Shown here one piece after another: positions 14,782 through 16,282 of a DNA stretch of 64,000 nt (the stretch's first letter is position 1; each line of letters opens with the position of its first letter). This DNA is from Nitrospiraceae bacterium. Lineage in GTDB: Bacteria > Nitrospirota > Nitrospiria > Nitrospirales > Nitrospiraceae. The translations under genes were made by a program, and so were the position numbers. A model generated the notes under the pieces. It saw only the letters and a program-made list of their open reading frames with translations. It was not told where the DNA came from and made no database searches. The stretch is taken from positions 103,088 through 167,087 of the forward strand of contig JBFWWG010000010.1 in the NCBI GenBank assembly GCA_050246315.1, written 5' to 3'.

Positions 14782-14904
14782 GGTTCGACTTCCCTTCAGA
14801 AGGACTTAGCCTGCATTATTCACGAGGATTCGTGACGAAACCGCCAAGACGCCACGCGAGACGGGCACGCGGAGCCGTGAGAACCCGAGCACCTGTCTTG
14901 ATTG

Positions 14905-15854
14905 TCAAGTGGCCACCTGAACGGTGGAACGCCAGCGAGTCCCATGACGCACCATCGCATTGAGAATGGTCAGCAGCTTGCGCATCGCGGCCACCAGTGC
15001 GACCTTGGGCGCTTTGCCGGCGGTGCGCACGCGCTGATAGCACTGCCGGATCACCGGGTTCCAGCGCGTCGCCACCAAGGTGGCCATATACAGGGCCGTG
15101 CGGACCGGTGCGCGGCCGCCCCAGATGGTCCGGCGACCCCGCAGCCGCCCGCTGTCGCGATTGCAGGGCGCCACGCCCACCAAGGCCACAATTTGTTTGC
15201 GATTCAGCAGACCCAACTCCGGCAACTCGGCCAATACCGTGCGGCTCATCACGGGCCCGATGCCCGGTACGCTTTGCACCAGATCTTCTCGGTCGCGCCA
15301 GACGGGACTCTGCTGAATCATGTCATCGAGATCGTCGTCGAGTCGGGCCAGTTCGGCGTGCAACCAGCGCAGATGAAGCTGAATGCGCTTCTGCACTCGC
15401 ACCAGATCCCGGTCTCGACGGTTCTGCTCGGCTTGTTGCATCTCCAGCACTTGGCGGCGCCGCGCCAACAAGGCCGCCAATTCCTCGGTCTGCGGATCGG
15501 GCAGCGTCCGCAGCCCCGGCCGAATGACCTCTGCACAATGGGCCAACACTTGCGCATCGAGCGCATCCGTTTTCGCCAACTGCCCGGTCGCCTTGGCAAA
15601 GTCCCGGACCTGGCGCGGATTGGCCACGATCACCGGCAAGGCCGCGTCCACCAGCGCGCGCAACAGAGGCCGTTCCACCCCCCGGTCGCTTCCAGCACAA
15701 TGCGGATCGGACGCACCTGGTTCAGCCTGGCGAGGACCGTGCTGATGCCTGGGTCATCGTACGGCACACTCAGCGACTCGCTGGTCGGCCGCATGGCGAC
15801 GTCCAGGCGCGTTTTCGACACATCAATTCCGACACACACCGACGGAGTCTGCAT
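14905..15854 (-). pseudogene. IS110 DEDD recombinase/transposase, frameshifted
   Basis: [51 protein letters not shown]; frame changes in a 6-G run (plus C6 at 15678-15683); one added base restores a 316-aa ORF. Confidence 0.88.
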
Positions 15855-15870
15855 CGCCGCCTCCTTGGTG

Positions 15871-16020
15871 AAGCCCGTCCTTGTCCTGATGCGGGCTCGA
15901 TGGCCCAGGCAACTGTTCGGGCTTGTGGTAGGAGGAACGTGACGACCCGGCTCGGCCACGGTCTCTGCGGACCGGAGGCATATCGATCTATCACGTTCCG
16001 TGGGTCTCATGTATCACACT
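15871..16020 (-). ncRNA. Predicted IS110 bridge RNA
   Basis: Two stem-enclosed internal loops: GGAACGTGA/TCACGTTCC holding target guides GATATGCCT and CCGAG; AAGCCCG/CGGGCTT holding donor guides ACAGTTGCC and ACAAG; ends approximate. Confidence 0.82.
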
Positions 16021-16282
16021 TTCAAGATACAAGGCATACGTGAAACAGCATGTTGACCGACCGAGCAGCGAGCCCTCCCGCCTGGCCGTGTGAAAACCAC
16101 GGCCAGGCTTGTCGTAGCGGCGAATGCACGGTTGCAGTAGAAGTCATCGTGAATAATGCGGATTAGGAGCATACCGCATCGTCGCGCGGACACCATGCGA
16201 ACTGTTGAGCCGACCTGTTGGGATGGAACGATGAATGAACCTTCCGTTGATTTCTTCATCCGAGCCAACGAGCGCGTTTCTT

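Follow-up and report, generated by a model that had tools for sequence, protein, structure and literature searches.

An IS621-type insertion sequence with a putative bridge RNA in a MITE-like repeat of a Nitrospiraceae genome

We analysed a window of 64,000 nucleotides (nt) from a Nitrospiraceae bacterium (GCA_050246315.1, contig JBFWWG010000010.1, positions 103,088 to 167,087) and find on its minus strand an IS110-group insertion sequence (IS) at 14888–16033, both copies of its CT core included. The element is very probably of the IS621 type, with a bridge RNA, and is inserted at a partly matched site in a repeat family, family B, that resembles miniature inverted-repeat transposable elements (MITEs). 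Coordinates are positions in the window unless preceded by a genome contig (C1, C3, C6, C9 or C10); the genome searched comprises 4.39 Mb in 30 contigs.

In the proposed mechanism, excision would join the right end of the IS to the left one, and a transcript from the joined ends would supply the bridge RNA, carried by a 177-nt left end with two internal-loop modules. The left target guide, whose sequence is that of the top strand across the left target and core, would pair with the bottom strand; the right target guide, GGCCGAG, would pair with the top strand to the right of the CT core; and the donor module (ACAGUUGC together with AU/ACAAG) would read the joined ends. Recombinase tetramers would hold the target loop on the centre of the repeat and the donor loop on the junction, and the enzyme, a DEDD/serine recombinase, would swap strands at the CT core. 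The guides of the clade, which belongs to Nitrospira-type genomes, would specify GTA(Y)GC-CT-C..., a site just after the small central hairpin of two MITE-like families, B (66 copies) and X (30 copies). The sequence analysis that follows shows the anatomy, the covariation of the RNA structure and of guides with flanks, the repeat families and the defects of this copy. By analogy with IS621 we infer transcription of the RNA, its pairing with DNA and recombination; any benefit of landing in repeats, such as the safe harbour that the initial annotation of this stretch had proposed, is likewise conjectural.

Anatomy of the element and of the repeat it splits

Both junctions were read directly and placed with the help of uninterrupted repeat copies and of relatives with both ends. 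On the minus strand, the left junction (16040–16021) reads CACGTATGC-CT-TGTATCTTG, where CGTATGC (16040–16034) is the left target, 16033–16032 is the CT core and the IS begins with TGTAT at 16031. The right junction (14900–14881) reads CAAGACAGGTG-CT-CGGGTTC; the right end of the IS, ACAGGTG (14896–14890), is followed by CT (14889–14888) and CGGG (14887–14884). Counted with one CT, the element is 1144 bp long (14890–16033, minus strand). The layout is that of the IS110 group, with the 177-nt non-coding left end (15855–16031) upstream of the gene, a right end 15 nt past the stop codon, CT at both junctions and no terminal inverted repeats. The right end (14890–14908, minus strand) holds the left donor, ACAGGTG here and ACAGTTG in relatives, and a TTGACA hexamer (14908–14903) in overlap with the stop codon.

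The recombinase gene (14905–15854, minus strand) is frameshifted, with frame 1 at 15854–15633, frame 2 at 15678–14908 and the stop codon at 14907–14905. Only a read-through of the frameshift gives a complete PF01548 domain (residues 8–65 of frame 1 match profile positions 1–63, residues 3–87 of frame 2 match positions 60–145), and the pieces alone are weak or partial (19.9 and 44.6 bits, cut-off 29). Frame 2 also contains a PF02371 match (70 bits, E = 2.2e-19). The longer frame matches the IS621 transposase (PDB 8wt6, E = 1.6e-31, residues 69–317), and the second-best solved relative is the ISCro4 transposase (PDB 9t56, E = 2.7e-31). An initial annotation of this stretch had called the element an IS621 relative of the IS110 group, and the two domain matches and the 8wt6 match bear this out. 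The serine of a D-S-G motif in the window protein aligns to the serine of E-S-G in IS621 and would thus correspond to the catalytic S241 named in PMC11208158.

The IS splits a copy of family B, as had been proposed. In IS orientation, the 5′ half of the repeat (16034–16166, minus strand) ends in the left target CGTATGC and the 3′ half (14806–14887, minus strand) starts with the right target CGGGT (14887–14883); the halves were delimited by BLAST of the flanks and an alignment of 12 full copies, and the 3′ half also by empty-site copies. Using the two flanks joined as an empty-site query, we identified 145 BLAST high-scoring segment pairs (HSPs). Together these take up 14,304 bases (0.33% of the genome), and 66 cross the insertion point, with 66–86% identity. 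The repeat is ~215 bp long, short, non-coding and multi-copy in the manner of a MITE, and it has terminal inverted repeats: in the 12 aligned copies the ends are GCCCGCATTATTCATGA ... TCATGAATAATGCGGGC, and in the uninterrupted copy at 59547–59757 the inverted arms are 55 nt long and 73% complementary. Most of the 12 copies have TA on both sides, which would fit a TA duplication.

Since the flanks have terminal inverted repeats of their own, one could also take them for components of a bigger composite mobile element with the IS as its cargo, in place of a target that existed beforehand. We regard this as the most improbable of the alternatives considered: in 66 copies the repeat is unbroken at the insertion point, where it has one CT or TT and lacks the IS; the genome holds a single full copy of the IS; and close relatives of the element are inserted in another repeat family.

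The centre of family B is variable in a structured way. To the left of the core, the 66 copies read CAAG-TATGC (34), TACGC (13) or TCTGC (7); the core is CT in 38 and TT in 20; and to the right we find CGG.. (20), CCC.. (17) and CGC.. (8). Immediately before the last base of the left target, five bases form the 3′ arm of a hairpin (e.g. ACATAC-TGTTTCAA-GTATG), with a 5-bp complement that is perfect in 43 copies, 4/5 in 20 and 3/5 in 3. The hairpin arms covary (CATAC/GTATG, CAGAC/GTCTG and CGTAC/GTACG, e.g. window 59640–59665), suggesting that the central hairpin is selected in the repeat itself.

Structure and guides of the putative bridge RNA

To derive a structure for the left end, we aligned its 177 nt with nine close relatives. 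The RNAalifold consensus of these 10 left ends contains a 5′ hairpin and two modules of stem, internal loop and stem-loop. A covariance model built from this structure (R1), searched in the window and 80 related loci, gave 81 matches, of which 78 are full-length and in sense orientation; two partial matches (L054, L075) and a weak antisense match (L003) were left out. The bridge RNA region of the window (15855–16033, minus strand) matches R1 positions 1–179 with 214.5 bits.

The 5′ hairpin (16010–16031, minus strand, as are all parts of the RNA) pairs 16031–16026 with 16015–16010, and this helix 1 is paired in 88.6% of cases, with 6 of 6 pairs changed on both sides. The target-binding module (15934–15999) consists of an outer stem, an internal loop and an inner stem-loop (15974–15959). 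Its outer stem has 14 bp (15999–15990/15943–15934 and 15988–15985/15947–15944) around a bulged A at 15989, and helix 2 is paired in 97.7% with compensatory change in 14 of 14 pairs. The donor-binding module (15871–15924) is built in the same way around an inner stem-loop at 15906–15893, with helices 4 and 5 paired in 96.0% and 98.4%. Over the whole R1 alignment (66 distinct rows), standard pairs fill 95.1% of cells, and compensatory changes are seen at 28 of 34 pairs. These values were not attained in any of 500 shuffles, and sliding the partners by 1–3 columns reduces pairing to 33–45% (maximum 44.8%).

The fold of the single sequence is not unusually stable (z = −1.1; 31 of 200 shuffles are as stable), so the structure is supported by covariation and not by folding energy. 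A search of Rfam 15 over 14000–17000 with E up to 10 returned chance-level matches only and no bridge RNA family. The sequence strings and stems quoted in the initial annotation all occur on the minus strand where it had placed them. It had proposed a two-loop bridge RNA on the strength of two stems (15999–15991/15942–15934 and 15924–15918/15877–15871), both of which are present in the single-sequence minimum free energy fold and in the RNAalifold consensus, and the covariation backs the modules. In this structure the guides lie in the internal loops.

We assign four guides to these loops. The left target guide is GAUAUGCCU (15976–15984; GATATGCCT at 15984–15976), based on a T/C covariation with the flank in close relatives and on the family-wide score. 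The right target guide, GGCCGAG (15951–15957), is the reverse complement of CTCGGCC and includes the CCGAG at 15955–15951; it is based on family-wide flank matches and is followed by CC (15950–15949) in the position of a handshake guide. The left donor guide, ACAGUUGC (15909–15916, within ACAGTTGCC at 15916–15908), is identical to the right end and first core base together (ACAGTTG-C) in 12/12 relatives and in a sister remnant on contig C3. The right donor guide (15879–15890) has two parts, AU (15890–15889) and ACAAG (15884–15880), which surround four variable bases within a conserved GCAU-NNNN-ACAAGG and are jointly complementary to CTTGTAT, the core plus the first five left-end bases; a G at 15879 occupies its handshake position. 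In the window copy the guides match 5/7 of the left target plus the core, 3/5 of the right target plus the core, 6/7 of the left donor plus C, and 7/7 of the right donor.

This arrangement corresponds to that of IS621 (PMC11208160 and PMC11208158), in which the left target guide repeats the top strand to the left of the core, the right target guide holds the reverse complement of the core and the bases to its right, and the donor loop reads the joined ends likewise. PMC11208158 describes a two-part right donor guide, and longer right guides are noted in some orthologues (PMC11208160). The incomplete donor match of the initial annotation (7/9) has two sources: the right end carries a private T-to-G change (ACAGGTG in the window, ACAGTTG in 12/12 close relatives, the C3 remnant and the element's own donor guide), and the guide has only 8 nt in IS621 (A123–C130, PMC11208158). 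The handshake bases of the window are complementary to the other partner, C15950 to donor G7 and G15879 to target C7. The same holds family-wide in 61/62 and 31/38 cases, with own-partner pairing in 0/38 and 1/62.

A promoter scan of the integrated state over 14700–16400 found no sigma-70-like promoter. Joining the ends creates TTGACA (14908–14903) and TATCTT (16029–16024) at a spacing of 17 nt, read by eye, a pattern that fits the junction promoter described for IS110 elements in PMC11208160. Numbered from the core, the left guide falls at positions 50–58, the numbers that it has in IS621; we give this coincidence no weight as evidence.

If the guides act on target DNA, they should change together with the flanks of each element. 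To find right ends, we searched for the donor-guide heptamer, with no more than one mismatch, and a CT after it; this succeeded for 73 of 78 records (ungapped guide), 62 of them distinct; the right target guide played no part in this step. Over the five non-core flank bases, the right guide matches its own flank at a mean of 4.6/5 in the 62 distinct elements (41 at 5/5, 17 at 4/5 and 4 at 3/5), and flanks of other elements at a mean of 1.54/5. The left guide in its best register scores 6.47/9 against its own flank and 4.76 in cross-pairings. Because the agreement recurs in dozens of independent relatives and is absent from cross-pairings, the guide–flank matches exceed chance.

The close set of 12 elements displays the covariation base by base. 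The left guide is TATGC in the window and two L004 copies, with flanks TATGC, GATGC and TATGC, and TACGC in the other nine elements, eight of which have a TACGC flank (L001, L002, L003, L005, L007, L008, L010 and L012). On the right, guide CCGAG goes with CTCGG flanks and guide CTGAG (CUGAG) with CTCAG flanks, the latter in L004, L005 and L006.

The structured left end could alternatively be a 5′ untranslated leader that controls translation of the recombinase and guides nothing. A Shine-Dalgarno-like AAGGAGG does lie just behind the second module, and a translation-inhibiting structured 5′ untranslated region has been described for ISPpu9 (PMC12288879). The loops, however, track sequence outside the element, which a leader would have no reason to do, and the order of the modules is that of the IS621 bridge RNA as given in PMC11208158; we find the leader explanation highly improbable.

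A second alternative is that the protein recognises the hairpin or the DNA shape of the repeat and that the complementarity of the left-end loops is incidental. The left target is indeed the 3′ arm of the conserved hairpin, which has a perfect 5-bp complement in 43/66 copies and compensatory variants, and a preprint (10.64898/2026.03.19.712850) reports a target stem-loop as an extra specificity determinant of ISPpu10. Against this, guides and flanks change jointly to the left and to the right of the core in many relatives with unrelated flanks, and the right target lies outside the hairpin and still matches the guide at 4.6/5. Hairpin recognition in place of RNA guidance is therefore very unlikely; a hairpin requirement would be compatible with RNA guidance and would not replace it.

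Site match and the two repeat families

For an element with an IS621-type bridge RNA, the commonest family B centre is a fitting target on the left side: the left target guide matches TATGC-CT, as the initial annotation had noted, and TATGC is found in 34/66 copies. Further support comes from a second, decayed IS110 element (locus L082, C10:34213–35362), which is 69% identical to the window IS, lies ~69 kb upstream of the window start and has a gene riddled with stops. Its left end (C10:34213–34391) matches R1 with 84.5 bits. This element occupies the same position of another family B copy as the window IS and carries different guides. Its left flank reads ...GGTTCAAGTCTGC-CT and its left guide, GATCUGCCU / GAUCUGCCU, matches GTCTGC-CT (TCTGC); its right guide specifies CTCCCTT, and the right flank is CT-CCCTCCTCGCGGCTCCGCG (CTCCCTC). 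The corresponding 12-mer, TCTGCCTCCCTT, occurs five times in the genome, four of them in family B. Two IS110 lineages that differ in both target guides have thus hit the same point of family B, which is the strongest support for the idea put forward in the initial annotation.

Other observations weigh against an RNA-guided insertion aimed at family B, or narrow what can be claimed for it. The recombinase frame of the window copy is not intact, and intact relatives have 316 amino acids (aa); the genome holds one full copy of the IS. With a transcription start ~7 nt behind TATCTT, the RNA would begin within the conserved 5′ hairpin, a poor fit. The covariation alignment (A2) was fitted to the model and so favours the model's structure, although the margin is still large. 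The donor-guide matches (55/62) are circular, since right ends were found via the donor guide, and the handshake positions are nearly invariant, which is conservation and not covariation. Left-target positions 1 and 2 rarely match the guide (8/38 and 3/38), so the effective site in the clade is five bases, CT and five bases. L006 is an exception in the close set, with guide TACGC and flank ACACAGC, and several distant relatives share its poor match on the left side.

Points of the same kind concern the occupied site. The right target guide of the clade has 7 nt, and the window guide (CTCGGCC) matches its site (CTCGGGT) at only 5/7; the CCGAG that the initial annotation had read as the reverse complement of CTCGG is part of this guide, which is of the family X type. 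TATGC-CT-CGG is present in only 3/66 family B copies and CGGCC in none. The occupied site scores 8 of 12 non-core guide positions, a score reached by 2027 CT sites genome-wide and exceeded by 367 (323 at 9, 42 at 10 and 2 at 11); nearly all sites scoring 8 or higher lie outside the repeat. The perfect 12-mer, TATGCCTCGGCC, occurs at C3:22706 and C9:178386, outside repeats and unoccupied. These counts are consistent with an element that is no longer active, and perhaps with a requirement for the hairpin context; they also mean that family B is matched only in part.

In favour of family B, the 10-mer TATGCCTCGG has three of its six genomic positions in this repeat (C1:264907, C3:191989 and C6:144790; all three unoccupied), whose HSPs make up only 0.33% of the genome. 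An uninterrupted copy identified with the empty-site query (59547–59757, minus strand; site AGTATGC-CT-CCCTC) had been named as an empty near-cognate site. It does read CAAGTATGC-CT-CCCTCCC as claimed, and the right guide matches only 1/5 of its non-core bases. Another family B copy in the window (10875–11116, 67% identical to the query) has the site CAAGTATGC-TT-CGCCCCC, with a TT core in place of CT.

The remaining evidence on targets comes from family X. BLAST of the element against the genome found, besides itself, a 277-bp remnant (C3:336174–336450) and the 69% relative (C10:34250–35297). The remnant is a 5′-truncated sister copy with 97.8% identity; its right end, ACAGTTG-CT, abuts CGGCCCTTCGCTCGCTGCGGCCTTGCC, which is a family X repeat, at CGGCC. 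Family X is a second inverted-repeat element with 30 centre-spanning copies in the genome and the site AGAGTACGC-(C/T)T-CGCCTCC. Two copies lie in the window (3527–3656 and 26722–26852), with ends like ATGCTGAAAAAG ... CTTTTTGAGCAT, and the central hairpin-plus-core layout resembles that of family B. The genome-wide search with tabulated flanks that the initial annotation had called for thus yields one full copy, a remnant in family X and a relative in family B. Among loci L001–L012, a family B or X match lies beside the element in 11 of 12 and within 12 nt of an IS end in 9. Family B is the neighbour in L004, L005 and L009, family X in L001, L002, L003, L006, L007, L008, L010 and L012, and L011 has neither.

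These neighbours raise the possibility that family X (GTACGC-CT-CGGCC) is the real target, that the family B insertion is a near-cognate, off-target event and that the RNA is not programmed against B. The window right guide, CTCGGCC, counts against a family B programme and for this view, being perfect (7/7) to the X-type right flanks of the C3 remnant, L003, L007, L008, L010 and L012; family X lies beside the element in 8 of the 12 closest loci, and only 4 of the 62 distinct elements match their right side as poorly (3/5) as the window copy does. The left guide points the other way: TATGC is commonest in family B and occurs in none of the 30 X copies (TACGC 15, TACGA 6). No X copy of the genome contains TAYGC-CT-CGGCC, TAYGC-CT-CGG is found in 1 of 30, and L004, which shares the left guide TATGC, is found twice in homologues of family B. 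We consider family X as the sole real target rather unlikely, and since a U at the guide position could pair with A or G, both readings may hold.

The guide pair of the window is mixed, with a left half of B type (TATGC) and a right half of X type (CGGCC). The proposal that the RNA is programmed against the host's MITE is partly supported; the right guide fits family X perfectly and the occupied site is partly matched. The C-to-U change in the left guide may allow one RNA to read both GTATGC (B, through U-A) and GTACGC (X, through U-G). A broader idea, which we put forward tentatively and hold to be possible though doubtful, is that the clade is a parasite of parasites: guides would diversify with the subfamilies of two MITE families, aiming behind the conserved central hairpin, with the hairpin maybe a second determinant and the U wobble bridging variants. 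Three guide pairings are seen, with left parts TATGC, TACGC and TCTGC and right parts CGG.., CAG.. and CCCTT. If true, the clade would be a natural record of stepwise bridge RNA reprogramming.

Related systems, state of this copy and its surroundings

The likeness to IS621 is extensive, and the comparison rests on published descriptions and the protein match. Both elements have the same two protein domains, a bridge RNA in the left end upstream of the gene, a CT core and short genomic repeats as natural targets, those of IS621 being REP repeats (PMC11208160). They also share the order of parts (5′ hairpin; target module, in which a left guide of 9 nt precedes a stem-loop, the right guide and a pair of handshake bases; donor module), a left donor guide of 8 nt whose first base is A and whose last is C, a right donor guide split in two, and an identical right donor, CT-TGTAT, as readable from the base pairs in PMC11208158. 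The wild-type target of IS621 is ATCAGGCCTAC (PMC11208160), in REP, whereas the target here lies in the middle of MITE-like repeats, which are ~215 bp long and have terminal inverted repeats. The right target guide has 4 nt in IS621 and 7 nt here, the right donor guide loops out 2 bases in IS621 and 4 here, and the present element differs further in its usually unpaired left-target positions 1–2, its host phylum and its defects.

ISPpu9 and ISPpu10 of Pseudomonas putida likewise insert at a fixed position of a high-copy palindromic repeat (PMC12288879), and for ISPpu10 a target-side stem-loop beside the paired bases is reported in the preprint 10.64898/2026.03.19.712850, just as the left target here is the 3′ arm of a hairpin. 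Their targets are REP/BIME sequences and their ends carry an AG dinucleotide (PMC12288879), in contrast to the MITE-like target and CT core found here. We see no Ssr9-like passenger in the window element. Some IS110-family elements of the IS1111 group insert at a fixed site at the end of a large transposon, whereas the site here is the centre of a MITE. In the IS1111 group the RNA lies downstream of the gene (PMC12288879). For ISCro4 (PDB 9t56), the comparison covered the protein match.

An IS110 pseudogene of Escherichia coli that is not IS621 (L083:692–879; E = 1.2e-12 to IS621) matches R1 with 21.1 bits. Its left end starts with the same CTTGTATCTTG and its donor loop contains ACAGUUG, so the donor pair is conserved across phyla.

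The mechanism itself is known from IS621, described in 2024, and IS621, ISPpu9 and ISPpu10 are known examples of IS110-family elements that insert into palindromic repeats of high copy number. New are the host group (the closest loci are Nitrospira or Nitrospiraceae), a target repeat that is MITE-like, with inverted repeats at its termini, and a series, found in nature, of guide pairs retuned at one hairpin-adjacent site. Literature searches on IS110 with MITE, bridge RNA or Nitrospira returned no description of the clade among the titles listed; not all journals were covered, and the supplementary target tables of PMC11208160 lay outside the search. Bridge recombinases are under development as programmable genome-writing tools, and how guides change in nature and which extra restrictions apply to sites are still being worked out. 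The series combines one conserved donor pair (ACAGTTG-CT-TGTAT) with at least three target guide pairs, each matched to a variant of the hairpin-adjacent site; it spans two repeat families and includes two independent elements at the same position in one genome. It could be used to study the 7-nt right-guide rule, the tolerance at the two distal left positions and the role of the target hairpin.

The window copy is probably immobile now, as judged from the 1-nt deletion in the recombinase gene and the right end that mismatches its own donor guide at one base. Alignment with relatives places the missing base in a G-run (15683–15678), at ...EATGG(L/V)E.... Open frames of 316 aa are present in L002, L005, L006, L008 and L012; the L004 frame is open with AGG as its start, and L010 has a frameshift of its own. 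Decay is common among the relatives: L007 lacks part of the donor module and L009 a detectable left end, in addition to the frameshifted L010 and the one L004 copy that starts with AGG.

The frameshift is also seen beyond this assembly. Twelve RNA-library rows from 5 studies cover part of the window, and we examined four runs (X1, X2, X5 and X8); these data are assembled contigs, which cannot show transcription, RNA ends or strand, and DNA carry-over is possible. Contigs of X2 (15405–15824) and X5 (15507–15745) cross the G-run without a gap and have the same frameshifted sequence. An X1 contig (14848–15695) has one extra base at 15677/15678 that restores the frame, spans the same right junction and shows four further differences (15397, 15409, 15415 and 15433); an intact allele thus seems to exist in the environment. 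The left end is covered by contigs of X1 (15780–16049), X2 (15809–15959) and X8 (15727–15971), and an X5 contig over the left end (15848–16001) represents a relative with 15 differences. No right-end-to-left-end circle junction is listed among the RNA-library contigs, which speaks neither for nor against excision. Four joints listed there skip the IS and derive from other repeat copies, one with 13 other letters between.

A near-perfect palindrome of ~20 bp, TTCGTATCTGATCCGATACG ... CGTATCGGATCAGATACGAA, lies at 16281–16324, ~115 nt from the repeat, and is single in the genome by BLAST; its Rfam matches, to miRNA and CRISPR-repeat families, are at chance level only. On the other side, a SAM-dependent methyltransferase gene (PF13649 and related families; 13885–14781, minus strand) has the same orientation as the IS. 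Its start is 25 nt downstream of the repeat end, and its upstream region consists of the repeat and the IS. To the host genome it is nothing unusual: a decayed insertion sequence that lies within a repeat, 25 nt ahead of a methyltransferase gene.

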